The notes below the pieces were generated by a model. The model had not been told where the DNA came from. It searched no databases and saw nothing but the letters and a program-made list of their open reading frames with translations. From a virus (taxonomy: Duplodnaviria > Heunggongvirae > Uroviricota > Caudoviricetes): 64,000 nucleotides of DNA. Within the stretch, counting starts at the first letter, position 1. Every line of letters begins with the position of its first letter. This document shows, in pieces, positions 4,151 through 22,469 of the stretch. The translations under genes and the position numbers were made by a program. The stretch covers positions 15,712 to 79,711 of the IMG/VR virus record IMGVR_UViG_3300047476_001238; one strand, 5' to 3'.

Positions 4151-6454
4151 TTAGATTACGCAACTGTCGCAGTCTTCTTGACTGGTGTATTCTGTTTCTT
4201 CTACTGGTTTAGAGTCAACTAACTTGTCGATGTTGATTTCGCCTTGACCATCAAAGGTGTTAAAATAATACAGTTGCTTCAATCCATACTTGTAGCACAT
4301 TAAAAGATGCTGTAGCATTTCCGACATAGGAATCTTTTCATCATCGTAGTACTGTGGATTGTAGGAAGTATTTACACTGATACCTTGATCAATATATTTT
4401 TGTAGCACTGCACACAGCTTGAGATAGCCCTCGGGGCTGACTTGATCCCAAAGCAGTTCATATTTGTTCTTTAAACGACGATATTCAGGAACTACCTGAC
4501 GTAATGCGCCGTGTTTGCTTTGCTTTACTGACACATACGAACGTGGTGGCTCAATTCCATTAGTAGCATTACTGATCTGAGCACTTGTCTCTGCAGGCAT
4601 CAAAGCCATTAGTGTGGCATTGCGCTGACCAGTACGTTGGATTTGTTCGCGTAGTGATTGCCAAGGCATACGCTCTTGGTAGGGCACCAATTCGTCCACA
4701 TCTCGTTTACGTGTATCAATAGGTAATACGCCGTTTGCACTCTTTAAATCCTTCCAGCGAGTGCAAGCGCCTTGTTCTTCGGCGAGGTCTGCAGAAGCTT
4801 TGATCAAATAATACGACCAAGCTTCTGCATACTCGTCAACTAAAGCTAACGCCTTAGGGTCACTATAACTAACATCATTCTTAGCTAGGAAGTAGGCAAA
4901 ATTAATAATTCCAACCCCAATTGGCCTAAACTCTTCGGTCGCTAAACGTGCTGCAAGGATCGGATAATTTTGATACGACAACAATGCATCCAATCCTCTT
5001 ACCGCCAACCGACACATCTTTTCGAAGTCATGTGGGCTTTTTACATTGCCCCAATTGATCGCTGATAGAGTACACAGGGCGATCCTACCATCCTCGTCGT
5101 TGACATCTTTTAACGGCACAGTTGGCAAATCAATTTCAGCGCAAAGATTACTCATCTTGATTGGTGCAACTCGTTCATCAAACGGCGAATGCGTGTTTGC
5201 ATGATCGACATTCTGGAGATAGATACGACCAGTATCCTTGCGTTCCTGCATGAATCTACTAAACAAATCAGCAGCCTTGAAAGTTTTCTTTCTCAGCTTG
5301 GTATTACGCTCTGCTCGCTCATATAGCTCTTTGAATCGATCTTGATCATTGAAAAAGGCAGAGTACAGCTCTGGTACATCATTAGGACTAAAGCAGGTAA
5401 TATCGCCACCTGTAATTAGTCTTTCATACATCAACTTGTTAAACTGCACACCATAGTCCATATGGCGTACACGATTGTCTTCGGTTCCTTTGTTGTTCTT
5501 GAGAACAATCAAATCCTCAATCTCGAGGTGCCAGATCGGGTAGTACAAAGTAGCGGCGCCATTACGGACACCCCCTTGCGAACAACTACGAGTGGCGCTT
5601 TGGAACAGCTTGTAAAAGGGTATAACCCCGGTGTGGTAAGCATCTCCATTTCGGATTGGGCTTCCGAGTGCTCGTATTCTACCTGCACCGATTCCAATGC
5701 CGGCTTTTTGGCTGACGTACTTAACAATGGAAGAAGTAGTAGCATTAATACTGTCAAGACTATCGTCCGTTTCAATAAGAACGCAACTACTGAATTGCTT
5801 TTGCGGAGTGCGTACACCGGCCATAACAGGAGTAGGCAAGCTGATATCGTGTAAGCTAATGGCGTCATAATAATCTTTTACCCATTGTAATCTTGTTTCT
5901 CGCGGATAATTTTGAAATAATGTTGCGGCGATAAGCAGATATGCCACTTGCGGTGTTTCGTATATCTCATTGGTCACACGATTTTGTACAAGATATTTAC
6001 CGCGCCATTGTTCCATGGCCACATAGGTAAAGTTCTCGTCTCTGTCGTGGTGAATAAATGAATTCAGTCGTGCCCACTCGTCCTCACTGTAGGCGGCGAG
6101 AAGTCCTGTATCGTAAAATCCCGACTCCACATTCTTTTTTACAAGATCTATCAAGGGCCAAGGCTGGTAGTCACCATAAACCTGTTTGCGAAGATGATAG
6201 TTAATCAATCTTCCTGCTACATATTGATAGTTTGGGGTTTCTTCGCTGATTAGATCAGCGGCTGACTTAATTAATGTTTCTTGGATATCCGATGTACGGA
6301 TTCCGTTATAAAATTGAATATGACTTTTTATTTCTACTTCACTTGCACTAACTCCAGTGATCCCTTCAGTTGCCCAAAACACCACTTTATGTAGTTTTTC
6401 TAAATCTAGTGTTTCTTTACGTCCGTCTCTTTTAGTTATTTGAATCTGCGTCAT
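4151..6454 (-). CDS. nrdA: ribonucleotide reductase class Ia alpha subunit
   Basis: 767 aa with an N-terminal ATP-cone (VTKRDGRKETLDLEKL), the catalytic NLCAEI and CSQGGVRNGAAT loops, and a C-terminal Cys pair. Length is typical of NrdA. Confidence 0.93.
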   Translation of the reverse strand: MTQIQITKRDGRKETLDLEKLHKVVFWATEGITGVSASEVEIKSHIQFYNGIRTSDIQETLIKSAADLISEETPNYQYVAGRLINYHLRKQVYGDYQPWPLIDLVKKNVESGFYDTGLLAAYSEDEWARLNSFIHHDRDENFTYVAMEQWRGKYLVQNRVTNEIYETPQVAYLLIAATLFQNYPRETRLQWVKDYYDAISLHDISLPTPVMAGVRTPQKQFSSCVLIETDDSLDSINATTSSIVKYVSQKAGIGIGAGRIRALGSPIRNGDAYHTGVIPFYKLFQSATRSCSQGGVRNGAATLYYPIWHLEIEDLIVLKNNKGTEDNRVRHMDYGVQFNKLMYERLITGGDITCFSPNDVPELYSAFFNDQDRFKELYERAERNTKLRKKTFKAADLFSRFMQERKDTGRIYLQNVDHANTHSPFDERVAPIKMSNLCAEIDLPTVPLKDVNDEDGRIALCTLSAINWGNVKSPHDFEKMCRLAVRGLDALLSYQNYPILAARLATEEFRPIGVGIINFAYFLAKNDVSYSDPKALALVDEYAEAWSYYLIKASADLAEEQGACTRWKDLKSANGVLPIDTRKRDVDELVPYQERMPWQSLREQIQRTGQRNATLMALMPAETSAQISNATNGIEPPRSYVSVKQSKHGALRQVVPEYRRLKNKYELLWDQVSPEGYLKLCAVLQKYIDQGISVNTSYNPQYYDDEKIPMSEMLQHLLMCYKYGLKQLYYFNTFDGQGEINIDKLVDSKPVEETEYTSQEDCDSCVI

Positions 6455-6463
6455 CTATTGCCT

Positions 6464-6913
6464 CTAGTATTGTTCTAATTTTAAATCTATTGCTGTGTAG
6501 CAATATTTTAAGTTAAATTGTTGATTAATGTGTTCTTTATTTACGATCTCGTCCTCAATCAAATTAAGAACATATTTCCCATCGGCAAAGTATGCTATAT
6601 GATATTGATATCTATCAACTGGATCATTATATACTCGTATTTCCGGTTTTAGATTTTTGCCGTGATCGCTAAGATGTAAAGTATATACTATTCCCAAGCA
6701 TTTTGCAAGATCGCAATAGTAATTTTCTATCAGTAATTCCCAAGGATTGGGCCACGAGTCAGGTTGCTCGGCTGTGAGATAGAACGGAGTAAAAGGACAA
6801 GTTTGCCAAAGTCGTTGAGTTTCCTCCAATGCACGTTCAAGTGGCATACTACCAATTTGACTTCGAAAATTCTTCCAATAGGCCAAACGCCTATTAGCAG
6901 ATAGTTTGAACAT
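6464..6913 (-). CDS. hypothetical protein (149 aa)
   Basis: ORF with a TATAAT/TTTATAAATG-like element immediately upstream. No motif. Confidence 0.45.
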   Translation of the reverse strand: MFKLSANRRLAYWKNFRSQIGSMPLERALEETQRLWQTCPFTPFYLTAEQPDSWPNPWELLIENYYCDLAKCLGIVYTLHLSDHGKNLKPEIRVYNDPVDRYQYHIAYFADGKYVLNLIEDEIVNKEHINQQFNLKYCYTAIDLKLEQY

Positions 6914-6920
6914 TTATAAA

Positions 6921-8282
6921 TTATACAAATTGTGTAAGACTATATTTTAAAGTACCAGTGCCCGAATCTAAGGAACAAATTAAACTGTCTGCATTGGCAA
7001 ACAAATTTGCCTTGAGACTTATATTTGATTCAGTATAACTGTCGGTAAAATTACTGTAAGTACCATCAGTAGAAAACGTAAATGTACCAAAGCGTTTAGC
7101 AGAGCTATTGCTCAATTCATAACGTATTTTTCCTGCGGTGTTTGGAACTAAACTGGCCACATAAGTGGTACCTGTAATGGATGCCCCTCGTGCTACCCCT
7201 GTCAATAAATTTCCCAAGAACATACCTAAGCCAGCGTCTGATCCTGTTTGGAATGTTTCACCAAAACTCACAAAGCTCACAGCCGAGTCCTTCAAGAAGA
7301 CTGCTGACTGTCCTGCGTAGTAATTGTTAATTGAAGAAACAGAATCTATAGAATTCATCACAAAAGCAGTATTCGACAGACCATCGTATCTACTGTTCAT
7401 GATACTCAATGAACGTGTAGTAGTTCCAAAATTAACTATCCCATTACCGCCGCCAACGAAACGACATCCATCAAAAGTTAACGAATTAACTGGTGACACA
7501 GTACTGTAGATGTGTACCACATTTGGAAACACAGTTGCAGATACATTTGATCCAAAATGAGTATTTACTATTCTGACGTTAGATGCACTGTCAATGTTCA
7601 AAACAGGTTGTGCTACACCGGCGCTGGTGTTAACAAACGACATGCCGCTGATTTCAATACCTTGTGGTAATATAGCTGTTCCTGAGCCAATCAATGGTCC
7701 AGAATTAAAAGAAGAATCGCAAAGGTTTGCTACAGATAAATTACCAAACTTGGCCTTGATAATTGTGCTATCAATACCATCACCTACCAATCTAGCATAA
7801 GGAGGAATTTGAATAGTATTGGATGTTAGATACGTGCCGCCGGGCAAATAAATTGTTCTACGTGTGCGAGGATCTATTTCGTTTAACGATGTTCTATAAA
7901 TTTGAGTTATTGCTCGATTAATTGCAGCATAGTCATCGTCCAAGCCATTGCCTTTGGCTCCAAAATCTCTAACATTTACAAAGTCGTCAAACTTTTGTTG
8001 GAAGCTACGAACAGTTGGATTTAGTAGACTGCTGCCAGTCTGTACCGAAAATCCTGTTGCATTGCCTACAAATGTGTAAGTTCCAAGTAGAGCAGTAAGG
8101 TCAGAGTACTGAGTTAAAATTTCAGTGACTCCCAGTGTCGGGGCACCTTCATCCAAGGTACCATTACCAATGTATAATTTTCTGGTGTCCAAACTCCAAC
8201 CAAGTTCAGCTGAAGCTAACTGCGGAAGATCTTGCTCTAATCCTCTGCGATGTTGAATTCTGCTTATCTGCGTAACGGCCAT
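6921..8282 (-). CDS. late-expressed putative virion protein with beta-helix-like repeats (fiber/spike-like)
   Basis: 453 aa, Gly/Asn/Thr/Ser-rich with repetitive short beta-strand segments. A CTAAATA late-promoter motif (8304-8310) and a GAGGA RBS lie upstream. Confidence 0.5.
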   Translation of the reverse strand: MAVTQISRIQHRRGLEQDLPQLASAELGWSLDTRKLYIGNGTLDEGAPTLGVTEILTQYSDLTALLGTYTFVGNATGFSVQTGSSLLNPTVRSFQQKFDDFVNVRDFGAKGNGLDDDYAAINRAITQIYRTSLNEIDPRTRRTIYLPGGTYLTSNTIQIPPYARLVGDGIDSTIIKAKFGNLSVANLCDSSFNSGPLIGSGTAILPQGIEISGMSFVNTSAGVAQPVLNIDSASNVRIVNTHFGSNVSATVFPNVVHIYSTVSPVNSLTFDGCRFVGGGNGIVNFGTTTRSLSIMNSRYDGLSNTAFVMNSIDSVSSINNYYAGQSAVFLKDSAVSFVSFGETFQTGSDAGLGMFLGNLLTGVARGASITGTTYVASLVPNTAGKIRYELSNSSAKRFGTFTFSTDGTYSNFTDSYTESNISLKANLFANADSLICSLDSGTGTLKYSLTQFV

Positions 8283-8303
8283 GCTAAATCCTCAATTATT
8301 GTG

Positions 8304-8310
8304 TATTTAG
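8304..8310 (-). promoter_or_regulatory. CTAAATA late-promoter-like motif (cyanomyovirus-type variant)
   Basis: 21 nt upstream of the ATG of the beta-helix protein. A second copy at 12591-12597 sits upstream of the 231-aa gene. Confidence 0.4.
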
Positions 8311-9005
8311 CTTGTAAGATAGTAGAGCTCTACTCTACGCATCCACTGATCACTCCAATAAGCAAAATCCTTGGGTTCTAGTACAAATTCCTGGTATTGA
8401 GGCGTTGCGTGTTCATCAGTAGGTCGAGCACACATGAGAATAACACCCGTGTTAATGTTTGTTCCATATGTGTCGTTGTGAGCCGCAGCATATGCCGCGA
8501 GCTGTAGAAAATAATCGTCGATCCACTCACGCTTTTTAGGCTTGTTCGTTTGCTTAAAATCCATGATTGCAGGCTGTCCCTTCCACACCCCGACACAGTC
8601 AGTAGTACCAGCATATAGCCCAGAATAGTATAAAGGAACCTCGCAACCCCAATATTCATCAACATTACCTAATCCTTCTAAAATAACTTGTGCAGCCATA
8701 AACCAGCTAGGCTGTGCAAACGGGTTGGAGGGGAAATCGCCTATATCGTCATTTTTAACATAACGCTCAAGATAGGTATGCATACGGGTGCCACGATTGG
8801 CAGCTTCTGTGGTAATTTGCTGTGCTCGTTCATGCCCAACACGATCTTTCCATTCTTGAAGCTTTTGTCTTGCTTCAGCAGGTTTAGTACGATCTAGGAT
8901 TGTTGTGACACTAGGAACACGGCTACCATCAGGAAGGGCGTAATGACGTTTACCCTCTACACTTTCTCTAGCTAGAGGGGTATAATCAAATTTTGGTATA
9001 ATCAT
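8307..9005 (-). CDS. PD-(D/E)XK family exonuclease (Cas4/YqaJ-like)
   Basis: 232 aa with IMDFKQ (hxDhK) and upstream acidic residues typical of PD-(D/E)XK nucleases, plus a conserved Cys. Confidence 0.55.
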   Translation of the reverse strand: MIIPKFDYTPLARESVEGKRHYALPDGSRVPSVTTILDRTKPAEARQKLQEWKDRVGHERAQQITTEAANRGTRMHTYLERYVKNDDIGDFPSNPFAQPSWFMAAQVILEGLGNVDEYWGCEVPLYYSGLYAGTTDCVGVWKGQPAIMDFKQTNKPKKREWIDDYFLQLAAYAAAHNDTYGTNINTGVILMCARPTDEHATPQYQEFVLEPKDFAYWSDQWMRRVELYYLTS

Positions 9006-9332
9006 TTAAACTCGAAAACTTTCTCCGCAACCGCAGCGGTCACGTTCGTTTGGGTTGATAAACTCGAAACCTTCGTTGAGTCCTTGCCGCTTGTAATCCA
9101 TAGTAAGACCATTTACGTAAGGCAAATCTCGACCGTTAACATATATTTTAACACCATTGCTGTCATAAGTCATCCAGTCTCTAGTGACCGGAGGAACATC
9201 TACATATTCTAACTTATAAGCAAGACCCGAGCACCCGGTAGTACGGACGCCAATCATTATGCCAGATCCACGACCACGTTTGATTAAGTGCTGTTGTACT
9301 TTTTTTGCTGCTTTTTCGGTGAGAGTAATCAT
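9006..9332 (-). CDS. HesB/IscA-type Fe-S cluster insertion protein
   Basis: 108 aa with a GCSGLAYKL core and the C-terminal CGCGESF signature of A-type carriers. Confidence 0.85.
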   Translation of the reverse strand: MITLTEKAAKKVQQHLIKRGRGSGIMIGVRTTGCSGLAYKLEYVDVPPVTRDWMTYDSNGVKIYVNGRDLPYVNGLTMDYKRQGLNEGFEFINPNERDRCGCGESFRV

Positions 9333-11056
9333 TATTCAAATCCTGCTAGCGTTTCTATTTTAACATTTAAACGATTGCCGTTTTTTACTAAATTGTTTTT
9401 TATAAATTCTGTTGGAGACATTACCCCAGGATCAAGATTTTTAGCAATTAGGGTGAGAAGTTTGTGATTACCTGCCCAAATTGATCCAGTAAGGAAAATA
9501 TAACAGGCGGTGATTGCTTCTTGTCCAAATAGCGGTCTGCCATCAACACCTTTGGTATAATAAAATTTATTGTGATTTGTCCAATTATCGTACAAATTGT
9601 CTTCAACTGCTTTGCACATTGGCGATTCTAAGAAATCATCAACTACCTGTTCCAAATTAAAAGTTGCAATTTTTTGACTTCTGAATTGAGTAAGAGCAGA
9701 ATAAATGTGTGATAGCACTGTCATTCTTACAAAATCTTTTTTACTAAAACTAATGCACGTTTCAGGAAATGTTGCATCAAAATAGTGATGTCCATTGAAA
9801 CGTTCGCTAGTGGTATAGGTAAATTTAAACTTTTCTTGATAAGTTTTATCTCTTGCTGCTGGGCTGGCTGGTAAAAGTTCGCTGATAAAAATTTGCAATT
9901 GTAAATCGTGTCTGCTTATTTCTTTAAGTGTTTCTCTCCAGCTTTCTACTGTTTGTCCCGGTAGTCCTTGAATCAATTGAATTTTTGAATGTAGATGTGG
10001 GTAAGCTTCTTTTAATTCTTGTATCATTGACAGATGCACATCCCACCCAACGTCGGGTCTATCAATATTTTCCAATACAGTTTTATTGATATCTTGTACT
10101 GAAATTGTAAATCCCGCAACATCGGTTAGCATATTACTTTTTGCCAATATGTGATAAATTTTTAAATTGTTTTCTTTTCTTAATTTACTAAAATTACCAT
10201 CAATTTTAAAACCAGCATTTTCAAAAATATTTTTATTGCCCATGTATTCAATCATGTCAATATCTTCTTGATACTGACCAACATTGGCATCTGACAGATA
10301 GATGTTCTTGACCTTTAACTCTTGAAACAAATCAATTTCATCTTTATAACTGTTTTTACGTCTAGTGGTTTTATTAGTTAGACCGCTATTCCAATCACAA
10401 AATGTACAACTGTAAGGACAACCCCTAGTCAAATCATAAGGAAGAACTACGCTTATCTGTTTGCTTTGCACATCCTTGATCATTGATGCAAATAATTCTT
10501 TATTGCTCAAGTATGGACTAACTGACAATTGTGGTACGTATTTAAAATCAGCCACAACAGTTTTATTTTTTACTTTATCCAGCCAGGCCACGTTTGAGGT
10601 ATTAAAAGCTATCAGCTTTTTGTTTTTTAAAATGCTTTCTACTATGTCAGCAAATGCCACTTCGCCTGCACCATATATGGCATAATCAGGGAATGTTTTT
10701 TTGGTAAAAAATTCTGGATCAATGTTTACATCAATGCTAGGACCGCCTGCTATAAAACAAATACTTGATGGAACCTTACTCTTGATTCTATTCAATTGAT
10801 CGCAGATAAAACTATCATTCCAAATGTAATGACTACTGCAAAACAGGTCTGGCTTTTCTTTCTCTAATAGACTTACCAACTCATCATCTGACATCTTTTT
10901 TTGTATCGGAAGCATCCAATCTAATTTTTCTCCGATTTCAGGACGATTTTGGTCGATCCATGTTTTTAAATACAGAGCTGCTACTCCCAAAAATAATAAT
11001 TTTTCGGCACTTTCTCTCAGAGTATCATTTGCATGATAAAATAAAACTTTAAGCAT
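9332..11056 (-). CDS. B12-binding-domain radical SAM enzyme (class B type)
   Basis: 574 aa. The N-terminal Rossmann-like block (ICFIAGGPSID) resembles a cobalamin-binding domain. A CPYSCTFC (Cx3Cx2C) radical SAM motif lies mid-protein. Confidence 0.75.
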   Translation of the reverse strand: MLKVLFYHANDTLRESAEKLLFLGVAALYLKTWIDQNRPEIGEKLDWMLPIQKKMSDDELVSLLEKEKPDLFCSSHYIWNDSFICDQLNRIKSKVPSSICFIAGGPSIDVNIDPEFFTKKTFPDYAIYGAGEVAFADIVESILKNKKLIAFNTSNVAWLDKVKNKTVVADFKYVPQLSVSPYLSNKELFASMIKDVQSKQISVVLPYDLTRGCPYSCTFCDWNSGLTNKTTRRKNSYKDEIDLFQELKVKNIYLSDANVGQYQEDIDMIEYMGNKNIFENAGFKIDGNFSKLRKENNLKIYHILAKSNMLTDVAGFTISVQDINKTVLENIDRPDVGWDVHLSMIQELKEAYPHLHSKIQLIQGLPGQTVESWRETLKEISRHDLQLQIFISELLPASPAARDKTYQEKFKFTYTTSERFNGHHYFDATFPETCISFSKKDFVRMTVLSHIYSALTQFRSQKIATFNLEQVVDDFLESPMCKAVEDNLYDNWTNHNKFYYTKGVDGRPLFGQEAITACYIFLTGSIWAGNHKLLTLIAKNLDPGVMSPTEFIKNNLVKNGNRLNVKIETLAGFE

Positions 11057-11429
11057 TTTGTTTATTCTTATAGTCTGCTAGTGCCGCTTTGATTGCATCT
11101 TCTGCTAATATAGAACAGTGAATTTTAACAGGCGGTAGTGCAAGTTCTTCTGCAATTTGAGTGTTTTGAATTGCTGCTGCTTCATCAAGACTCTTTCCCT
11201 TGAGCCACGTTGTGACCAATGATGAACTTGCGATTGCCGAACCGCAACCATAAGTCTTGAATTTGGCATCTGTAATCACATTGTTTTCTACTTGTATTTG
11301 TAATTGAAGTACATCTCCGCAAGCAGGAGCTCCTACTAGACCTGTTCCTACACTGGGATCATTTTTATCCAGTTTACCAACGTTTCTTGGATTTTCATAG
11401 TGATCCAAGACTTGACCTGAGTAAGCCAT
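11049..11429 (-). CDS. iscU: IscU/NifU-like Fe-S cluster scaffold
   Basis: 126 aa with the IscU signature GAPACGDV...YGCGSAIASSS...HCSILAEDA (three conserved Cys). Confidence 0.88.
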   Translation of the reverse strand: MAYSGQVLDHYENPRNVGKLDKNDPSVGTGLVGAPACGDVLQLQIQVENNVITDAKFKTYGCGSAIASSSLVTTWLKGKSLDEAAAIQNTQIAEELALPPVKIHCSILAEDAIKAALADYKNKQNA

Positions 11430-11458
11430 TTTATTCTCCTTGGATTATTGTAATTTAT

Positions 11459-11872
11459 TTACGATCTTTTTGCAAGAGCAGACTTAGCCATTGAATCTAC
11501 TGTACGCTCAGGGGGTGTTCTAGGAGCGTTTGAGTCACCAATTGCGGCCAATTCTTCATCGTCGTCGGCAAACGGAGTTAGGTACACATACTTTACTCCA
11601 GTTGCGTCGTCTTTGATATCTTTAACAAGAGCTTTCAAAGATTCGTTGTTTGATAGAGCTTGATCTAATGTATCTAAATTAAATTGCGGATGCTGCATTT
11701 GCACTAGATTTATTAGTGAATCGGCCCGTACTCGTGGCACCGCGTGAGTGTCATGAGCACGGTTTCTCATAGTTTCAAGTATGTTCATCAGATCAAGAAT
11801 AGCCGGATCTGCTGCCTCGTCTTCGAGGATCTCATCAATAGCATCCTCAGTGATAATTTCACGAATACGCAT
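11459..11872 (-). CDS. hypothetical acidic protein (137 aa)
   Basis: ORF with acidic low-complexity termini. Confidence 0.45.
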   Translation of the reverse strand: MRIREIITEDAIDEILEDEAADPAILDLMNILETMRNRAHDTHAVPRVRADSLINLVQMQHPQFNLDTLDQALSNNESLKALVKDIKDDATGVKYVYLTPFADDDEELAAIGDSNAPRTPPERTVDSMAKSALAKRS

Positions 11873-12567
11873 TAACGTTTTTCTCTGCCTACAACATTTG
11901 GACCTGCTGCTGCACTAGTTGCTGCGAATTCGTCAGTATCAAGATCACTGCCCATATCTGCTGCTGGCATTTCAGTACCGTCAGGCATTGCACCAGGTGC
12001 TGCATCAGCTCCCATGCCCATACCCATTGGTTGCGCCACTTGTTCTCCTGCAAGAGCTCTAGCAGCGGTATCAGCTGTGCTTCGTGCCGAGCTTAACTGC
12101 TGGCTCATGTTAGCCAATAATGGCTCAACTGCGGCTTTAAATGCGTCAGCTTGTTCCATGCCAATTTGGTCACGAATAGTGTCTAGTAATGCAGGCATCT
12201 GCTCGTTTTGCATTTTGCTAACTTCTTCAAGCATGTCCTGGATACTGTCAACCATGTCCTTGGCAGCTAGAATAGCCTGGCTCTTGCCCATTTCGCTTTC
12301 TAGGATCAGTTGTTGTTTGTTTTCAACCATCCAGCGATGTAGGCCTTCACGTACCATTAGCAGCTCCATGTACTTAGGATTCTTTTCTGCTACGTGTACT
12401 CCGTGGCTGTGCTTGATTTTTTCAAGGCTCTCAGTTAGGCCACGTGCTAATACATATGCACGTTTGAAGTCTAAATTGGCGTAATCAATTTTAACGCCAA
12501 AACGGCTTTCCATTACTTTGTTAATTTTTTTTGCTGTGGGCTTGGTGCCCATTTCTGTTAGTCTCAT
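11872..12567 (-). CDS. hypothetical alpha-helical protein (231 aa), late-expressed, scaffold-like composition
   Basis: A CTAAATA motif (12591-12597) and an AGGAA RBS lie upstream. The protein is coiled-coil-like and Glu/Gln/Met-rich with a GMGMG tail. Confidence 0.5.
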   Translation of the reverse strand: MRLTEMGTKPTAKKINKVMESRFGVKIDYANLDFKRAYVLARGLTESLEKIKHSHGVHVAEKNPKYMELLMVREGLHRWMVENKQQLILESEMGKSQAILAAKDMVDSIQDMLEEVSKMQNEQMPALLDTIRDQIGMEQADAFKAAVEPLLANMSQQLSSARSTADTAARALAGEQVAQPMGMGMGADAAPGAMPDGTEMPAADMGSDLDTDEFAATSAAAGPNVVGREKR

Positions 12568-13090
12568 AGCTGTTGTTCCTAAAGTTAAAGTATTTAGCCG
12601 AAATTAAAGTTTTTTTCAAAATCTGTATTGAATCTTTACGCTGCATTCTGGCATCTAATAGTCTATTGTATGCAACGTCTTTTTTAAAATTATCCTGTTT
12701 TTTTCGTTGTAATGCTTTTTCGTAGTGTATAATATCAGTACTTAGTTTTCCTATTTTTTTATCAAGCTCTAATAGCGTATTGGCTTGAGGAAATTGTCCG
12801 CGTGTTTCATACAAACAATACAAAATCGCTGTAATTTTATCAACAAAATCATGAACGTATTTGTCATCAAATTGAGTCACTGTCCAACAATATGTGTGTT
12901 TACCAACAATTTGAAACGATCCAACAAAAAACCTGTAGTCCCCAATCGGAATAACTACAGGCTTTGATCTATATTTTGCTAGTTCTTGACGGGTCCATGA
13001 TTGAATATAATTTAGCCCAAATTCTGTAAATGCTGCTCTGGCATTGTCCAAATCAGACTTTCTTTTTGTAATAAATTTGCCCTTCGTCAT
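12521..13090 (-). CDS. hypothetical protein (189 aa)
   Basis: ORF overlapping both neighbours. No motif. Confidence 0.4.
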   Translation of the reverse strand: MTKGKFITKRKSDLDNARAAFTEFGLNYIQSWTRQELAKYRSKPVVIPIGDYRFFVGSFQIVGKHTYCWTVTQFDDKYVHDFVDKITAILYCLYETRGQFPQANTLLELDKKIGKLSTDIIHYEKALQRKKQDNFKKDVAYNRLLDARMQRKDSIQILKKTLISAKYFNFRNNSYETNRNGHQAHSKKN

Positions 13091-13259
13091 TTTTTCTATA
13101 TAGTATATCTTTGTTTACCAATTGGTTAGCTAATAATACTTCTCTTGGACTTAAATCTTTTTTTAATATTTCCGTTGATTCGCTAAATTTACCTAAGATG
13201 TCTGATTCTTCGTTGGTAATTGGTAATCTAACTTTATTTAATAATTCTATTATCTTCAT
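13053..13259 (-). CDS. hypothetical protein (68 aa)
   Basis: Small ORF with a plausible composition. Confidence 0.3.
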   Translation of the reverse strand: MKIIELLNKVRLPITNEESDILGKFSESTEILKKDLSPREVLLANQLVNKDILYRKNDEGQIYYKKKV

Positions 13260-13261
13260 TA

Positions 13262-13528
13262 TTATTTCAGGACAAGTTGTACAATAACCATAATTAAGCC
13301 TGTGAGCATTGCTACACCAAAAGCTGTGCCAATGGTAATCAACTGCCCGCTAGTTTTACTGGTAGCCTCGGCAGTAGATTCCGAAATTTTCGTGCGGATA
13401 ACTATGATGTTTTCTTCCATATTAGTCATACGCTGTTCTAGTTTGTCTAATTTATCTTCCAATGCCTTGTATCTTTCGGCGCATAAATCCACGTGCGCTC
13501 CAAGGCTTGTTCTTTCGCTTGCTGCCAT
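13262..13528 (-). CDS. hypothetical protein with a C-terminal transmembrane helix (88 aa)
   Basis: N-terminal coiled region followed by a hydrophobic C-terminal 25 aa. Confidence 0.45.
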   Translation of the reverse strand: MAASERTSLGAHVDLCAERYKALEDKLDKLEQRMTNMEENIIVIRTKISESTAEATSKTSGQLITIGTAFGVAMLTGLIMVIVQLVLK

Positions 13529-13612
13529 AGTACTCTTTCATAAAAATTAGAGGGTTCTGTGTTGTTGTCTAGATTGTGAGCCATAAAGAAAATGCCTTAA
13601 AATGCCAATGAT

Positions 13613-14065
13613 TTAAATTGTATTTAAGTTCATTCTGCCAGTTTTAAAGTATATGTTTTTTATAGCGCCATATGGATAAAAAATTGGTAATATAAACCTT
13701 GCAGTTTCATCTAGCCCACAAATTATAGGCACTTGAGCAAAATCTTTGTCCAATCCGCCAACCGGATCACGGTCTTCAAGAAATACATCTTCATGTTCGA
13801 CCCCAAAGCAGAAAATCCATGCTCGCTGCTTGCCATAGTACATCTCACCGAAGCCGCTGGTTTCATCGATGTCAAATTCTGCACAAATTGGTCCTTCAAT
13901 CAACTGTGGCTGTGATCTAAGACCTATTACCTGTAATACTGTTTCCCAATTTCTTTGTTGATCCCGTTGAACTTCTTGGCCAGGTCTGTGTCTGGTGATA
14001 CCAGTAGCAGTAATATCAACTAATGTTATGCCAGTATAAAATTTCATATAGATATTTATAGCCAT
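13613..14065 (-). CDS. hypothetical late protein (150 aa)
   Basis: TATAAATA (14053-14060) lies only 5 nt upstream of the ATG, on a T4 late-type promoter. Confidence 0.5.
   Translation of the reverse strand: MAINIYMKFYTGITLVDITATGITRHRPGQEVQRDQQRNWETVLQVIGLRSQPQLIEGPICAEFDIDETSGFGEMYYGKQRAWIFCFGVEHEDVFLEDRDPVGGLDKDFAQVPIICGLDETARFILPIFYPYGAIKNIYFKTGRMNLNTI
14053..14060 (-). promoter_or_regulatory. T4-type late promoter TATAAATA
   Basis: Exact octamer 5 nt upstream of the ATG at 14065. Confidence 0.5.
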
Positions 14066-14093
14066 AAAAAAAGCAGACCAAAGTCTGCTTTTT
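14066..14093. terminator. bidirectional rho-independent terminator (AGCAGAC-CAAA-GTCTGCT)
   Basis: Perfect 7 bp stem with flanking A and T runs. Nearly identical copy at 14516-14546. Confidence 0.65.
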
Positions 14094-14110
14094 GTTGTAA
14101 TTTTTAAAAA

Positions 14111-14461
14111 TTACGATACTACAAAACTAGTTCCGTCTGTCACAGTTGCGCTACCTAAGTTAACAGAACCTTTCTTGGTGCCAATAGCCTGTAGTGCTGT
14201 CTGTAGTGCGCTAGCTGCTGGGGCATTTACACCATCGCAGATAATGCTAATAATGCCGCTAGTAGCATGAGCAAAATATGCTAGTACTGGTGGGAATGCC
14301 TGAATGATTGCTTCATAAGCTTCGTTTGCTGCATCATCTTCTGATGACAAGTTAACGCCAGCATCAACTACATATAACTTAACGCTTTGACCAGGAACGA
14401 TCAAAGTTCCAGTTGTACCTGCAAAAAAGTAGCCTGCGCTACGATCTAAACCAATTGCCAT
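14111..14461 (-). CDS. small Ala/Gly/Thr-rich late protein A (116 aa), probable abundant virion-associated protein
   Basis: CATAAATA late-type promoter plus a strong AGGAGA RBS upstream, flanked by rho-independent terminators. Paralogous architecture with the next gene. Confidence 0.65.
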   Translation of the reverse strand: MAIGLDRSAGYFFAGTTGTLIVPGQSVKLYVVDAGVNLSSEDDAANEAYEAIIQAFPPVLAYFAHATSGIISIICDGVNAPAASALQTALQAIGTKKGSVNLGSATVTDGTSFVVS

Positions 14462-14515
14462 TTTATTTCTCCTAAATTATTTGCGTGTTATCGCATGTTA
14501 ATATTTATGCTGGTT
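14462..14515 (-). promoter_or_regulatory. late promoter (CATAAATA) plus conserved 5'UTR with AGGAGA RBS, copy 1 of a duplicated unit
   Basis: About 90% identical over roughly 55 nt to 15010-15061. Confidence 0.55.
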
Positions 14516-14546
14516 ATAAAAAAAGCAGACCGAAGTCTGCTTTTTA
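14516..14546. terminator. bidirectional rho-independent terminator (AGCAGAC-CGAA-GTCTGCT)
   Basis: Perfect stem flanked by A and T runs. Confidence 0.65.
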
Positions 14547-14562
14547 ATTAACTTAAATTTAA

Positions 14563-15009
14563 TTAAGCTAGTTTGATACCGCCAGTTGACGATACAGTAG
14601 CCAATGCTGGGAATACGTTGCCGTATGCACCAATGTTAGCACCAGCTGTACCATTGTGGGTTAGTGTGCGAATCTGAGCTTGTAGATCAGCATCTGACCA
14701 TGAGCTACGCTCTACTAGAACGCTTAGTTGTGCGCTTGAACCAGCTGCATCAACTTGGTATGCAATAACAGATGCGTTTGTAGAAATGGTCTTGATTAGG
14801 GTTTCTACTGCACCTACTAGACCTGCACCGCTTGGCTCGCCTAGTTCTGCTGCTAAGTTAGCAGTTGCACCTAAGGTACCAATCTTGATTGCACTGATAG
14901 GTGAAGCGATACCTGTATTAATGATCTTTGCATTTGCAAAAAATTGACCTGCATCAACGTTGTTTACACCAGCACTATTGCCGTGTACTTTTTGGACTCC
15001 AATTGCCAT
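14563..15009 (-). CDS. small Ala/Gly/Ser-rich late protein B (148 aa), paralogous unit to protein A
   Basis: Exact TATAAATA late promoter plus the same AGGAGAAATAAAATG leader as gene A. No Cys, low complexity. Confidence 0.65.
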   Translation of the reverse strand: MAIGVQKVHGNSAGVNNVDAGQFFANAKIINTGIASPISAIKIGTLGATANLAAELGEPSGAGLVGAVETLIKTISTNASVIAYQVDAAGSSAQLSVLVERSSWSDADLQAQIRTLTHNGTAGANIGAYGNVFPALATVSSTGGIKLA

Positions 15010-17865: not shown

Positions 17866-17873
17866 TATTTATA
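17866..17873 (-). promoter_or_regulatory. T4-type late promoter TATAAATA driving the 82/230/247/370-aa late operon
   Basis: Exact octamer about 20 nt upstream of the TTG start. Confidence 0.5.
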
Positions 17874-19032
17874 TTATAGAAGTTAATACTTCTTTCCACT
17901 CAGCATGCGTTTTTTCAAATTTAGTACTTCTTAAATTATCAAATTTATCAATTTGATCTAAGAATTTTTGGTGGGAAAATTCTTCTCGTATGGGTATCGA
18001 TTTAAGTAGCTGTAATAACATCGGATAGTCGGCGAACTTATTTCTTAATATATTATATTGGGTTTTATCCAAAAACTCTAATCTAAAATCATGCAGACCA
18101 GGATAAGGCAGTACCTTTTGAAAAATTAAATTTACAGGATCACCTAATCTATTTTCTTTGAGATTCATTTTATGCCAGTCAACCAATTGATCAAGATAAT
18201 AAAAATTCAAGTAGCTGTATACACAATTAACTTTAAACATATGATTAACCGGCATATTTTCTTTGTACCAAGTTAAATTCTCTGTTATTCTTTCCCAAGA
18301 AACCCCCGGTCTCTGATACTCGAATCTTTGTTCTATATCGTCAATACTAAAATATAATTCTACTAATCTACATTCAGACCACAAATTCAAAATTTCATCA
18401 GAAACTCGTACAGTTCCATTGGTGTTATAAAACACATGAACATCAGACAATCCCTTGACTTTTTTAATATTTTTTAAAAAAGTGATATGACTATCACTTA
18501 ACAATGGTTCGCCGCCACCGTGAAAATGCACATTGCGAATATTTTGTAGCTGATTGTCGGTTATTTCAATTTGATTATTTTTTTGATATTTGAATTTTGT
18601 TGCATCAGCTTCGGGAAATAATTTTTGATAGTCAGGCACCCAAGATGAACTATTACCGGGATTGCACACTAAACATTTTAAATTACACAAATTTCCAACG
18701 CTGTAGTCAATGCTAATCGGTCCGGGTGAATTGGTGTCAGAATCATTAAAAAAATTTTCATACAATTCAACCACACCTTGACGCCTACTTGTTAACCCCA
18801 ACGCTTCATCATTATAACAATTAATACATCCAGGAACTTTTTGATCTGATTCTATTAATTTTTTTATTCCGATATGCTTTTTGTTATTCCAAACTTTGGC
18901 TATGCTAATATTATCGTCTGTTCCTATATCACCAGTGTAAAAAGAACAAGGAGTATATTTGATTCTTCCGTTATGGGACCATATGGCCAAATTTTTATAC
19001 ACTTCATAACAAAAGTATTTGTTCTTTTTCAT
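17869..19032 (-). CDS. radical SAM enzyme with a SPASM/twitch-like C-terminal domain (paralog 1)
   Basis: CNLKCLVC (Cx3Cx2C) and a GGGEP SAM-binding motif, with additional Cys pairs N- and C-terminal. Similar layout to the ORF at 61470-62747. Confidence 0.8.
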   Translation of the reverse strand: MKKNKYFCYEVYKNLAIWSHNGRIKYTPCSFYTGDIGTDDNISIAKVWNNKKHIGIKKLIESDQKVPGCINCYNDEALGLTSRRQGVVELYENFFNDSDTNSPGPISIDYSVGNLCNLKCLVCNPGNSSSWVPDYQKLFPEADATKFKYQKNNQIEITDNQLQNIRNVHFHGGGEPLLSDSHITFLKNIKKVKGLSDVHVFYNTNGTVRVSDEILNLWSECRLVELYFSIDDIEQRFEYQRPGVSWERITENLTWYKENMPVNHMFKVNCVYSYLNFYYLDQLVDWHKMNLKENRLGDPVNLIFQKVLPYPGLHDFRLEFLDKTQYNILRNKFADYPMLLQLLKSIPIREEFSHQKFLDQIDKFDNLRSTKFEKTHAEWKEVLTSII

Positions 19033-19037
19033 GTATT

Positions 19038-20501
19038 TTATTCGGTTTTAGTTTTTAAGCTGGCAAGCATTTGTTTCAATTTTGTGCTATCTACATTGGC
19101 CTGTACTTTGCTTTCGATGTCAAATCCCGGCTTTGGTGTAGCTTTAATAAAGGGTGCAGCACCTGCACCTTCAGTTGTGGTAGTGCTTTTGGCTTTGATT
19201 TGATTCATTATGCTACCAGGCGCACTTGGACCACCAGGACGCCCATACCCGATTGTACCAGCCTCAGCTGCATCTTCACCAGGGTCAGTGATACGCATGG
19301 TTTCAATGTTGTATTCTAGATCTACTTTTTGACCCACACCGGTACTGCTTCGACTTTTCATACACTGGATTTGATAGCGTCCGCGCTCGCGCATGGCACG
19401 ACTTGTAAAAATACCAAACACATTATCTGCTGTGTTAATTTTACTGATACCACCTGAAATGTGACTGTGATCAAATTCAATTTCGTCAACTGCGCCTCGG
19501 TTCAGCTGACTTGCAGTGACCATGAGCACCCCCAATTCTTTACTCAAATTACGCAGTTCTTCTGATACATATTTGTCTTTCACAAACAAATCATTGGGAC
19601 TAACTTTGGCACTCACAGGCATCAGCAGATCTAAATAGTCGATCATCATAAAGTCAATTTTGCGCCCTGTTTGGATTTGGTATTCTTTTAGGAATGCTCT
19701 GATATCGTTGATATTGCTTTGTGCAGGCAATGCTTTGACTTGATAAGTGCCAGACTTTTTACCAACCATTTTAATTTTAAGTGCCGCGGTATCTTTGTCT
19801 TTGCGTATGTCTTTGGTACTCATGTTGGTCAACATGGCCGCTGTACGCAAACCTGTTAATTCTTGACTGAGTTCTAGTGTGATATAAACTCCATGAAGTC
19901 CTTGTTGTACCCAGTTAAGGGCAATGTTCATCATGACCAAGCTTTTACCTGAGCCCGATCCGCCAGCAAAAATATTAAGCTCACCTCTACTGAAACCACC
20001 ATACAACAGTTTGTCTACCTGTGGCCAGCCTGTGCTAACTTGCCCACCTGAATCAAAATATCTAGTAATCATGCCAGACGGATCTTCCCAGAAGTCCATG
20101 CCTAGATCTTTGGTAAGACTGATTTGTACAGCATCTTTGATTAGTTTTTCCACAGGATCAAAGTCGCCTTTTTCAATCATGTCTGCTGCTTGCAGAATAG
20201 CTCGTTCAAGTTCTTGTTTACGACTGAATCCTTCAAATTCTTTTAAAAACCAATCGTAGTGACCTTCTTTAAGGTCAGGAACTTCCCTGAGCTCTACACC
20301 TGTTGCTGCTTGAATCTGTTCTTTAGTAGGCAACGTTTTGTGATCATCGCTGTGTTTTTTGATAAACTTTGCAGCTTCTCTAAGACTGCGATCAAAATTT
20401 TCTGCATTGTAAATGTTCTGCACACGCACATATACTTCTGCGTCTTGCAGCATCATCTCCAGGAAAAGTTTTTGTATGTCGGGATTATAATCTTTTGTCA
20501 T
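19038..20501 (-). CDS. 41: DnaB-like replicative DNA helicase (T4 gp41 type)
   Basis: 487 aa with Walker A GGSGSGKS and DnaB-family H2-H4 motifs (IDYLDLL, TASQLNR). Confidence 0.88.
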   Translation of the reverse strand: MTKDYNPDIQKLFLEMMLQDAEVYVRVQNIYNAENFDRSLREAAKFIKKHSDDHKTLPTKEQIQAATGVELREVPDLKEGHYDWFLKEFEGFSRKQELERAILQAADMIEKGDFDPVEKLIKDAVQISLTKDLGMDFWEDPSGMITRYFDSGGQVSTGWPQVDKLLYGGFSRGELNIFAGGSGSGKSLVMMNIALNWVQQGLHGVYITLELSQELTGLRTAAMLTNMSTKDIRKDKDTAALKIKMVGKKSGTYQVKALPAQSNINDIRAFLKEYQIQTGRKIDFMMIDYLDLLMPVSAKVSPNDLFVKDKYVSEELRNLSKELGVLMVTASQLNRGAVDEIEFDHSHISGGISKINTADNVFGIFTSRAMRERGRYQIQCMKSRSSTGVGQKVDLEYNIETMRITDPGEDAAEAGTIGYGRPGGPSAPGSIMNQIKAKSTTTTEGAGAAPFIKATPKPGFDIESKVQANVDSTKLKQMLASLKTKTE

Positions 20502-21451
20502 GACTTGGGACAGTTAAATGTACAAGCTTTTGGCTTGATTGTTTCGATATTGTTGTAAAAATCTTTTAAATTGTTGATAACTTGCGATAACGTTGTTTTA
20601 CTTATTGCAAATTTTTCTTTTTGTTTATAAAAATCACTCTCGTAATAGAATCTATGATCGCCCATCCAGCAACAGGGCAAATAAAAACCCGAAGCTGAAA
20701 TGAAATGCATAGAATGAGTAATTTTGCAAACAGGGTTTATGTCATTTTTGTTGTTGCTGTTTTTCCATTGTATGATACTATCATTTCGATTTCCATCAAA
20801 GCTGCCGTTAGACAGTATTCCAGTTTCTGTTTTATAACCGGTATCAACGTATCGTTTAGGATTCAACCAATCGTTAACATCGTCCCAACGATCACTATTG
20901 TTTAAAACAAACTCGTTGATTCCTAAATTTTTGCTCAACTGTTGAGCTGTTTCGATGTCATTGATATTATAACTAAACACAATAAATTTCCAAACAGTCT
21001 TTGCTCGACTCTTGGTCATTATGCTTATACCACGTTCAATGCTGGGCCAATCTGCATTTACTCTATACTGTGTAAAATTCTCAGGAACGCCATCAATGCT
21101 GAAATTCACAACATCTGTTTCGTCAAGAATTTCTGCCAGTTGCTCCCAGGTTGCATTGCTGGCGTAGCTGCCGTTTGTGGTAATAATTATATTGCATCCT
21201 GCAGATTTAAAATATTTTATCAATGGAATTAGGTCAGGGTAATACAGTGGATCTCCGTAATTTCCATTCAATGCAACGAGCTTTCCTTTAAGATCTATAT
21301 CTAAAAAATTTTTTAGATCTTCAAAATTTAAATTTAAATTTTTCCATTTTTTTGGAAACTTTTTAATAAACTCTGTTCGCGAACATCGCGGGCATTTTAA
21401 GGTGCAAATGTTAGTTGGTTCAAGATGAATGCCACGAATAGATTCAAGCAT
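20498..21451 (-). CDS. radical SAM enzyme with a SPASM/twitch-like domain
   Basis: N-terminal CTLKCPRC (Cx3Cx2C) at residue 16, and a C-terminal Cys cluster (C..CC..C..C). Lies between the helicase and primase genes. Confidence 0.8.
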   Translation of the reverse strand: MLESIRGIHLEPTNICTLKCPRCSRTEFIKKFPKKWKNLNLNFEDLKNFLDIDLKGKLVALNGNYGDPLYYPDLIPLIKYFKSAGCNIIITTNGSYASNATWEQLAEILDETDVVNFSIDGVPENFTQYRVNADWPSIERGISIMTKSRAKTVWKFIVFSYNINDIETAQQLSKNLGINEFVLNNSDRWDDVNDWLNPKRYVDTGYKTETGILSNGSFDGNRNDSIIQWKNSNNKNDINPVCKITHSMHFISASGFYLPCCWMGDHRFYYESDFYKQKEKFAISKTTLSQVINNLKDFYNNIETIKPKACTFNCPKS

Positions 21452-22469
21452 ATAACTTTTTCTTCTTTAACTCTATTTTAAGTCGACTAGTTTCTCTCGC
21501 TGCCAGAATACATTTAAGCACAAACAATTTGCCGTATTTGACTACTGCTTCATTGATGTCTTTGCAGGTCTCCTGCCAGACTGGAAAACTCACAGTCCAC
21601 CCTGCTTCTATTGCGCGGTCAACCAGCTTCTTACCTGCTCGGTCTGAATCAGGAACTACAATGACTTCTCGTTGCAATCTATCAATTTGATCAACTTGTA
21701 TGTCGGATATTTCTGCTCCGTTAAGTGCAACTCCGTCTATGCTCATTGCATCAAATGGTCCTTCGCACACAATAACAAACTTATTATCAGGCTTTTGATT
21801 GTCTAAGTTAAACACAAAGTCTGCTGGATGACTGCTCCAATACTTGGGCTTGATACCATCTGTAATTGCTCGGCTTGTATAGCCTACTGTTTCGCCACGA
21901 TAACGGAAAGGGATGATTATCCTACGATGTAGGTTATACGCTTCTTCGGGTGTCCAATAAAATTCGTATCGGTTTATGTCAATGGATCTACGATGTACGT
22001 ATTCGATAGCAGCAAGTAGTTCGGCTGGTACATTGTTATAATCGCCAATGCTGTAAAAGTTGGCAAGTTCGACCACGTTCTTTGCCTGTTCAGGCAACGA
22101 TCTTGCTTCATACGCAATCTCTTGCTCGGGTTCTTTGGCTAATTCTTCAGGCGCAACTAATTCTCTGAGTCTGACTGCATCAATAACCAATCTCCGGACA
22201 GTTAGGTCGTCGGCACCTAACCAAGCAAGCAACTTTCTAAACTTAAAAGTTAAATGTCTGCCGGGAACAAAACTGGCTTTAAAGCCGCAATTGAAGCAAT
22301 GATAGCTTACAGCACCTGCATTGGTTTTAACCCCGCCACGCCCTCTAGTGTCAGCAGTTTCACCATTATGTACACAGCACGGAGCATTGAAACTGGTCCA
22401 GCCATTCTGACCCGTTTTTTTACGGGCAGGAAGCAGTTGAAGGACAGAATCTTGAATAGTAGTCAGCAT
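21444..22469 (-). CDS. 61: DNA primase (T4 gp61 type)
   Basis: Zinc-ribbon CCVHNG...HCFNCG followed by a TOPRIM block VIVCEGPFDAMS and DSDRAGKK. The start could instead be the TTG at 22499. Confidence 0.82.
   Translation of the reverse strand: MLTTIQDSVLQLLPARKKTGQNGWTSFNAPCCVHNGETADTRGRGGVKTNAGAVSYHCFNCGFKASFVPGRHLTFKFRKLLAWLGADDLTVRRLVIDAVRLRELVAPEELAKEPEQEIAYEARSLPEQAKNVVELANFYSIGDYNNVPAELLAAIEYVHRRSIDINRYEFYWTPEEAYNLHRRIIIPFRYRGETVGYTSRAITDGIKPKYWSSHPADFVFNLDNQKPDNKFVIVCEGPFDAMSIDGVALNGAEISDIQVDQIDRLQREVIVVPDSDRAGKKLVDRAIEAGWTVSFPVWQETCKDINEAVVKYGKLFVLKCILAARETSRLKIELKKKKLYA

Follow-up and report, generated by a model that had tools for sequence, protein, structure and literature searches.

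A variable slot between iscU and iscA in uncultured jumbo phages carries a predicted TokK-like cobalamin-dependent radical SAM enzyme

Background

In bacteria, the genes for the iron-sulfur (Fe-S) cluster scaffold IscU and for the A-type carrier IscA are neighbours in this same order, as in iscRSUA. Proteins of both kinds are also encoded by viruses: in marine T4-like phages, genes for IscU, an A-type carrier or both occur alongside several radical S-adenosylmethionine (SAM) genes, up to 12 in one genome, and it has been suggested that these viral assembly proteins serve virally encoded Fe-S proteins (Nishimura 2017, PMC5332604). As for the radical SAM enzymes, TokK and ThnK (carbapenem C6 alkylation) and CysS (cystobactamid) are cobalamin-dependent sequential methylases. 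Two tryptophan residues of TokK, Trp76, which lies under the corrin, and the active-site Trp215, are shared among characterised enzymes only by ThnK and CysS (bioRxiv 10.1101/2021.07.10.451909). The present analysis concerns a locus in which genes of both kinds meet. It lies in a 64,000-nucleotide stretch of DNA from an uncultured jumbo myovirus (positions 15,712 to 79,711 of the IMG/VR record IMGVR_UViG_3300047476_001238; hereafter the window), where the gene for a 574-aa radical SAM protein, TokK-like in its predicted structure, is placed between iscU and iscA.

That viruses carry iscU and A-type carrier genes is already known, as are the proposal linking these to viral radical SAM enzymes and the enzyme class itself; the family to which the 574-aa protein belongs is uncharacterised, and literature searches found no description of a phage-encoded cobalamin-dependent radical SAM methylase. 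The sequence-only reading of the window had seen in the three genes one overlapping, translationally coupled operon with which the virus matures its own radical SAM clusters. Comparison with related phages leads to a different reading, judged moderately probable as a whole: a captured isc pair with a history as a cargo slot, the TokK-like enzyme as one of its cargoes, and IscU and IscA as a general booster of Fe-S supply.

The iscU-iscA junction as a variable slot

Loci related to that of the window were collected from IMG/VR by searches with the radical SAM protein, IscU, IscA and an alignment of the radical SAM family, which yielded more than 200 loci, each search being sampled through its best 80 matches. 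The shared gene order is hyp189 - hyp231 - hyp137 - variable slot - exonuclease - tail fibre - one open reading frame (ORF) - ribonucleotide reductase (RNR). The exonuclease gene is syntenic in nearly all relatives, and hyp137 keeps its place with or without iscU, iscA and the radical SAM gene.

What lies between these borders varies. Among 73 non-redundant iscU…iscA spans from related jumbo-phage contigs, iscU and iscA abut with an empty junction in 31, a cobalamin-type (B12) radical SAM gene is present in 25 (in tandem in two of these), and in about 17 there is some other insert, in most cases not an Fe-S enzyme. These other inserts include an FA_desaturase on the opposite strand, a TylF-like O-methyltransferase, a BPL_N/GATase-like protein, DUF4337, a hydrolase-like protein, a 335-aa protein without assignment and a SPASM-type radical SAM protein. 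Seen from the side of the enzyme, 37 of 68 non-redundant B12 radical SAM genes have iscU and iscA as their neighbours on either side, and about 12 lie between hyp137 and the exonuclease gene in a locus that has neither iscU nor iscA, one of them on a 326-kb contig. In some loci, cargo also follows iscA, in the form of twitch-type and 326-aa radical SAM genes or of two genes without assignment. No gene within about 10 kb was found to co-vary with the presence of the radical SAM gene; hyp189, hyp231 and hyp137 are present regardless.

The bracketing by iscU and iscA is therefore a matter of cargo insertion into a pair derived from an isc operon, and the proposal of a conserved iscU-radical SAM-iscA unit falls: only 25 of the 73 spans hold the enzyme, and the enzyme is also found at the same site without iscU and iscA. 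The expected co-occurrence of iscU and hesB homologues with radical SAM genes is borne out only in part. Besides the 31 empty spans, nine of the 22 long (>=18 kb) iscU-iscA loci have no ORF with a CX3CX2C motif within about 10 kb, a judgement that applies to the local neighbourhood. The simplest history would be that iscU and iscA were captured as a block from a bacterial isc operon and that cargo was then inserted at their junction. The slot between hyp137 and the exonuclease gene, and above all the iscU/iscA junction, would then be a hot spot of recombination and cargo exchange.

The coordinates and minus-strand orientation first assigned to the three genes match ORFs exactly (Table 1). The iscU stop overlaps the start of the radical SAM gene by 8 nt (shared letters ATGCTTAA), the stop of the latter overlaps the iscA start by 1 nt (TAATG), and a Shine-Dalgarno-like AAGGAG is found 7 nt upstream of the iscU ATG. 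The close packing runs on past iscA into the exonuclease gene, whose start is abutted by the iscA stop (TAAATG). The start/stop overlaps behind the notion of a translationally coupled operon can thus be read in the sequence. However, they are ordinary here: 42 of the 82 same-strand junctions in the window overlap or abut, so that tight coupling is weak evidence of a functional operon. In a promoter/terminator consensus scan of positions 6000-15000, counts were at or under the shuffled expectation.

Table 1. Genes of the variable slot, its borders and the other radical SAM genes of the window
Feature	Coordinates	Strand	Evidence
iscU, ISC-type Fe-S scaffold, 126 aa	11049..11429	-	TIGR01999, NifU_N, phrog_8429
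TokK/CysS-like cobalamin-dependent (class B) radical SAM protein (predicted), 574 aa	9332..11056	-	Radical_SAM, PDB phmmer, AlphaFold2 (AF2) model, Foldseek
iscA, A-type Fe-S carrier, 108 aa	9006..9332	-	TIGR00049, Fe-S_biosyn
PD-(D/E)XK exonuclease, right-hand border of the variable slot	8307..9005	-	phrog_298 exonuclease 3.2e-55; PDDEXK_1 weak
hyp137, acidic 137-aa conserved protein, left-hand border of the slot	11459..11872	-	synteny; without Pfam or PHROG match
Twitch-domain radical SAM protein, 387 aa, candidate Fe-S client	17869..19032	-	NF033640 N_Twi_rSAM 218.7 (cutoff 170); Radical_SAM 46 bits
Radical SAM protein, 317 aa, between helicase and primase genes	20498..21451	-	Radical_SAM 46.2 bits; phrog_21308
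Radical SAM/SPASM protein, 282 aa	56629..57477	-	CX3CX2C as CSLMCNFC at residue 14; SPASM 36.6 bits
Twitch-domain radical SAM protein, 424 aa	61470..62744	-	NF033640 232.3 (cutoff 170); Radical_SAM 34.9 bits

A second type of locus, with the order exonuclease-RNR-iscU-iscA, is found in L059, L063, L067, L085, L127, L128 and others. Its IscU is 87-90% identical to that of the window, whereas the large subunits of RNR share only about 45% identity. The iscU-iscA pair may therefore have been exchanged between distinct phage lineages, or recently acquired from similar hosts.

Several loci deserve mention for their inserts. In L110 (2142-5605) and L125 (6541-10004), tandem paralogous B12 radical SAM genes for proteins of 572 and 583 aa, about 41-43% identical to the window enzyme, lie between iscU and iscA. 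The fatty-acid desaturase (PF00487, 61.5 bits) stands antisense between the two genes in L100, L105, L107, L117 and L134, often accompanied by a hydrolase-like or BPL_N/GATase-like gene. The window itself encodes, at 43832-44464, a homologue of the BPL_N-like protein. The exonuclease itself was considered as a Cas4-like Fe-S client and rejected: it has only three cysteines, which do not follow the Cas4 pattern, and at 17.8 it stays below the Cas4 cutoff of 65.

Divergence and recombination

Pairwise protein identities were compared over 20 non-redundant loci. The median is 53% for the radical SAM protein, against 85% for IscU, 78% for IscA, 85% for the exonuclease and 81% for hyp231; the tail fibre, with 55%, is the only gene as diverged as the radical SAM gene. 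The identity of the radical SAM protein correlates with that of the tail fibre (rho 0.55) more strongly than with that of the exonuclease, whose gene separates the two (rho 0.37). As the pairs are not independent, a tracking of the tail fibre by the radical SAM gene is only suggestive. Correlation with IscU identity is close to nil (rho 0.10).

The ratio of nonsynonymous to synonymous substitution rates (dN/dS) for the radical SAM gene is 0.07-0.10, like that of its neighbours, with dS saturated; the gene is therefore under purifying selection and functional, and positive selection is ruled out as the source of its divergence. The divergence reflects old alleles exchanged by recombination, not decay. 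For example, two loci (L014 and L050, contigs 3300033816_000485 and 3300008116_005559) show 99-100% DNA identity through hyp189, hyp231 and hyp137, and a sharp recombination boundary at the 3' end of hyp137. Beyond it, identity drops to 83-87% in iscU, about 70% in the radical SAM gene and 66-73% in most of iscA, which is followed by an indel of about 600-700 bp; in the exonuclease gene, identity is about 80% in the 5' part and again 94-98% in the 3' part.

These data also bear on the reading of iscU, the radical SAM gene and iscA as a dedicated, translationally coupled module, whose scaffold and carrier would specifically load the [4Fe-4S] cluster of the bracketed enzyme. The overlapping start and stop codons, the position of iscU upstream and iscA downstream of 37 of the 68 B12 radical SAM genes, and the inclusion of all three genes in the one diverged tract of L014 and L050 are what such a module would lead one to expect. 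However, overlaps are the norm in this genome, 31 of the 73 pairs are without insert and roughly 17 carry other, mostly non-Fe-S, inserts, and the enzyme occurs at the same site without the pair, as on the 326-kb contig. Moreover, its identity does not follow that of IscU, and it requires just one ordinary [4Fe-4S] cluster. A dedicated module is therefore considered unlikely, and cargo insertion into a captured pair remains the preferred account of the locus.

The TokK-like radical SAM enzyme

The 574-aa protein matches Pfam Radical_SAM (PF04055) with 45.6 bits (cutoff 29.5). A phmmer search of PDB sequences returns TokK (2.9e-31) and CysS (3.1e-17), and the family profile matches TokK with 1.3e-40. 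The AF2 model, built from 53 homologues, has a mean predicted local distance difference test score (pLDDT) of 91 and a predicted template modelling score (pTM) of 0.90. It contains an N-terminal Rossmann cobalamin domain, a radical SAM core and a variable C-terminal domain, in that order. Foldseek places TokK first, over all three domains (template modelling score relative to the query, TMq, 0.74; E 5.8e-31), then CysS (TMq 0.67), with OxsB (TMq 0.53, E 3e-15), MgmA and TsrM well behind. The radical SAM/B12 identity first proposed for this protein is thereby upheld: structure prediction, which could have failed to find a SAM-binding core, returned a full core at high confidence and a TokK-like cobalamin domain. 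In Pfam, the B12-binding score is sub-threshold (20.9 against 32.1), and the cobalamin domain is established by predicted fold, not by Pfam; many homologues carry precomputed PF02310 matches.

The conserved residues point the same way. The cluster motif CX3CX2C corresponds to C213-x3-C217-x2-C220, and its three cysteines are invariant in the 53 homologues; W79 and W222, which align to W76 and W215 of TokK, are invariant as well. With TokK and CysS the protein shares the three-domain build, the cluster motif RGCPYSC(T/S)FCDW and both clade-specific tryptophans. Like them it is without a DxHxxG motif, so that base-off/His-off binding of cobalamin is likely. The model thus identifies a TokK-like class B radical SAM enzyme. 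No auxiliary-cluster cysteine pattern was found in the protein. Within the family, the radical SAM core is the most conserved part and the last 110 residues the least.

The differences from TokK and CysS are nevertheless considerable. Identity is only about 20-22%, and at 574 aa the protein is shorter than the PDB chains (645-681 aa). The residue that binds the substrate carboxylate in TokK, Arg280, is replaced by Asp286, and aspartate is found here in 46 of the 53 homologues. The phage gene is not accompanied by a nearby biosynthetic gene cluster or by a carrier-protein, pantetheine- or coenzyme A-related gene. The best NCBIfam match is the KedN5 family C-methyltransferase NF033712, at 97.6 bits against a cutoff of 700, and the protein falls under every curated NCBIfam family cutoff.

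The phage-encoded family is also essentially without close cellular members. When 185,579 species genomes were scanned for the pattern of the family alignment, a single match emerged, on a 3.2-kb contig of a metagenome-assembled genome, and the family search gave at least 665 clusters (90% identity) at E <= 1e-5 among the 8,000 candidates examined. A PHROG search with the protein returned no family, and its structural cousins in other uncultured phages carry generic annotation only. Judged from these sequence searches, the family is apparently large, uncharacterised and confined to phages.

On the model, the protein is very probably a methylcobalamin-dependent C-methylase. By homology, its single [4Fe-4S] cluster (C213/C217/C220) would reductively cleave SAM to give a 5'-deoxyadenosyl radical, which would abstract hydrogen from an unactivated substrate carbon. 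The radical so formed on the substrate would then take a methyl group from methylcobalamin, held base-off/His-off over W79, and a second SAM would re-methylate the cobalamin. Alternatively, the enzyme might depend on cobalamin but not be a methylase, as in ring contraction of the OxsB type or cyclisation of the BchE type, or might have lost cobalamin binding. The sub-threshold Pfam score, the significant structural match to OxsB, the low identity to TokK and the loss of its substrate-binding Arg280 are all compatible with this. However, the two methylases TokK (TMq 0.74) and CysS (TMq 0.67) far outscore OxsB (TMq 0.53) and all other matches across the three domains, both clade-specific tryptophans are invariant and the best NCBIfam match is to a C-methyltransferase subfamily. 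A non-methylase is quite unlikely, and C-methylation is the activity assumed in what follows.

IscU, IscA and the supply of Fe-S clusters

The identities proposed for iscU and for the HesB/IscA-type gene were borne out by hidden Markov model searches. IscU exceeds the cutoff of the NCBIfam iscU equivalog TIGR01999 (215.1 bits against 192.4), matches Pfam NifU_N with 170.7 bits and aligns end to end with Haemophilus influenzae IscU (1q48, E 6.5e-64). In that alignment the ligand motifs GAPACGD, YGCGS and LPPVKIHCS are intact: the equivalents of Cys37/Asp39, Cys63 and His105/Cys106 are present, and the HscA-binding motif LPPVK is kept. The 108-aa carrier scores 94.8 with the A-type family TIGR00049 (cutoff 58.8) and 68.9 bits with Pfam Fe-S_biosyn. 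It falls short of the IscA equivalog TIGR02011 (132 against 150.6), although IscA is its best match; it matches Escherichia coli IscA/YfhF (1r94) at E 1.1e-33 and keeps the three conserved cysteines of E. coli IscA (GCSG ... CGCGESF).

The relation to the bacterial operon iscRSUA-hscBA-fdx is close. The phage IscU matches those of Haemophilus and E. coli at E ~1e-61 to 1e-64 and shares about 75% identity with the iscU product of a bacterial-like Acinetobacter record, and the order iscU then iscA, the ligands, LPPVK and the three IscA cysteines are all retained. In one bacterial-like record, for example, iscU (25388-25765) is followed by iscA (25805-26122). By contrast, the phage pair is split by a 1.7-kb cargo gene, and iscS, hscB, hscA, fdx and iscR are all missing from the 64-kb window. 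No class V aminotransferase was found among the window ORFs of at least 300 aa, all of which were scanned, and hence no desulfurase; a search of the window for ferredoxin, flavodoxin and cobalamin-related genes returned none. Since IscU keeps all its ligands and LPPVK and the window encodes no desulfurase, we infer that the phage protein would take sulfur from the host IscS and use the host HscA/HscB. Phage IscA would then hand [4Fe-4S] clusters to apo-proteins.

Four GenBank 'phage' records that matched IscU or IscA (CAKLQH020000011.1, CAKLQF020000009.1, OR851435.1 and AFYI01000001.1) resemble fragments of bacterial chromosomes, with a full isc-like context and ErpA, one of them being a 289-kb Salmonella record. 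Such bacterial-like records should not be counted as phage-encoded Fe-S genes. The one complete genome of a cultured type with a close IscU, that of phage C48C1, encodes an IscU 73% identical to that of the window, without IscA, and its single CX3CX2C ORF lies 57 kb from iscU.

With five radical SAM genes in 64 kb, the window belongs to a phage lineage unusually rich in such genes. It seems plausible, by analogy with the marine T4-like phages, that phage Fe-S scaffolds aid the maturation of the many radical SAM enzymes of the phage. IscU and IscA would in this case be a general booster of Fe-S supply for these enzymes during infection, perhaps also for host enzymes, and not a dedicated maturase of the gene that they bracket. 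The claim that the virus matures its own radical SAM clusters is thus plausible in its general form, as proposed before for other viruses, but a dedicated maturation of the bracketed enzyme is unsupported by the comparative data. The present lineage resembles the marine phages in having a viral IscU/A-type carrier alongside several radical SAM genes. It differs in being a group of jumbo phages of 326-368 kb, and in having a B12-type radical SAM gene inserted into the pair, whose junction serves as a cargo slot.

It could also be that iscU and iscA are auxiliary genes for iron or Fe-S supply in nucleotide metabolism or host physiology, unrelated to radical SAM enzymes. For example, they might provide iron or ferredoxin-type clusters for the upkeep of the class I RNR cofactor. 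The pair lies within a few kb of class I RNR genes in both locus arrangements, a glutaredoxin gene adjoins the RNR genes, and the nine long loci without a nearby CX3CX2C ORF are in line with such a role. Class I RNR, however, uses a di-iron centre and not an Fe-S cluster. Moreover, the window yielded no ferredoxin, radical SAM genes are unusually numerous in the lineage, and even the complete C48C1 genome, with iscU, still has one radical SAM-like ORF. This explanation is very unlikely.

Some observations weigh against the favoured reading of a captured pair with cargo and a general booster role. B12 radical SAM genes are almost never found before iscU or after iscA, and the placement of 37 of 68 between the two may conceivably carry an advantage, such as co-translation with the cluster donors. 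The locus samples, as best matches, are biased towards close relatives. On the side of the enzyme, the B12-binding domain scores below the Pfam threshold, and cobalamin binding and methyl transfer are deduced from the predicted fold and the conserved residues.

Substrate and significance

The position of TokK Arg280 is occupied by aspartate in the phage enzyme, and the substrate should therefore differ from that of TokK. In our ranking of candidates, glycans, nucleotide-sugars and other small molecules come first, followed by proteins and then by nucleic acids. The first rank is owed to an island of sugar-nucleotide and glycan genes at about 35400-60800. It comprises five NAD (nicotinamide adenine dinucleotide)-dependent epimerase/dehydratases, glycosyltransferases of families GT9, GT17 and GT34, an FkbM methyltransferase, an NDP (nucleoside diphosphate)-hexose C-methyltransferase-like protein (40629-41840), split transketolase-like thiamine pyrophosphate proteins (53314-54413), a PfkB kinase, two cytidylyltransferase-type proteins and a cupin/mannose-6-phosphate-isomerase fusion (59244-60032). 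The genes for the 282- and 424-aa radical SAM proteins are interleaved with this island.

Phage thymidine-hypermodification hallmark genes were not found in the window. In Pseudomonas phage M6, gp53 is a radical SAM protein, similar to spore-photoproduct lyase, whose gene stands beside those for a 5-hydroxymethyldeoxyuridine (5-hmdU) kinase, an aGPT-Pplase and a pyridoxal phosphate (PLP) enzyme (PMC8989533). The two cases have in common a phage-encoded radical SAM enzyme for an exotic modification chemistry. However, the M6 enzyme is not cobalamin-dependent, and the present window is without 5-hmdU kinase, aGPT-Pplase and PLP enzyme genes.

The behaviour of the radical SAM gene as a hypervariable cassette is its most intriguing unexplained feature. 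It might be a diversifying specificity cassette, whose alleles, about 50% identical and sometimes in tandem, are shuffled among near-identical jumbo phages and C-methylate differing, host-specific targets. These would be a glycan or nucleotide-sugar from the sugar island, a virion protein or DNA. The divergence of the enzyme would follow that of the tail fibre since the two would both be adapted to the host strain or to its defences, and iscU and iscA would be retained to guarantee cluster loading of the incoming allele. This interpretation is quite improbable; if true, it would describe the first cobalamin-dependent modification system in the arms race between phages and their hosts.

If the enzyme is active, abundant uncultured jumbo phages deliver a cobalamin- and Fe-S-dependent C-methylase to the infected cell, and phage replication would depend on the host supply of vitamin B12 and Fe-S clusters. 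The enzyme points to a virus-directed methylation chemistry, and its family offers a clean target for enzymology. There is also a lesson for annotation: adjacency and overlapping codons, which suggested a dedicated operon, are here those of a cargo hot spot in a captured isc pair.

Origin of the window and its other genes

The viral origin of the window is confirmed by T4-like replication genes, a tail fibre and relatives on viral contigs. The gene content includes a class I RNR, a UvsW-like helicase, a DnaB-like helicase, a primase, a RecA/UvsX-like recombinase and a tail fibre of the pectate-lyase type. The window helicase is 45-49% identical to the helicases of the jumbo phages Atu_ph07 and PA5oct, and homologues of the radical SAM protein are carried on viral and metagenomic contigs of 326-368 kb. 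Among GenBank phages, megablast gave no DNA-level match to positions 8000-13000 of the window, and tblastn of the 574-aa protein a single weak match, with 22% identity, which leaves the locus without a cultured relative among them.

The four further radical SAM genes first noted in the window are all confirmed by Pfam, NCBIfam, motif and SPASM matches (Table 1). Those for the 387- and 317-aa proteins are interleaved with replication genes at 17869-22469. The order is twitch-domain radical SAM gene, DnaB-like helicase (19038-20501), 317-aa radical SAM gene and primase (21444-22469), and all of these genes overlap or nearly abut.

Accessory genes at 25482-26647, 31581-32384 and 35462-35938 belong to a set encoding a 2-oxoglutarate (2OG)-Fe(II) oxygenase, a PIG-L-type deacetylase, an SPFH/Band 7 protein and a gamma-glutamyl cyclotransferase-like protein. 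A host-like cluster of envelope and transport genes (44804-46210, 46220-47026, 47369-47929 and 48809-49534) encodes a phosphate-selective porin O/P (174 bits), a PstS-like phosphate-binding protein, a fragment resembling an outer membrane protein beta-barrel or TonB receptor, and a fragment of a TctA-family transporter. The presence of an OprO/OprP-type porin beside pstS in a phage is an unusual auxiliary set for phosphate acquisition.

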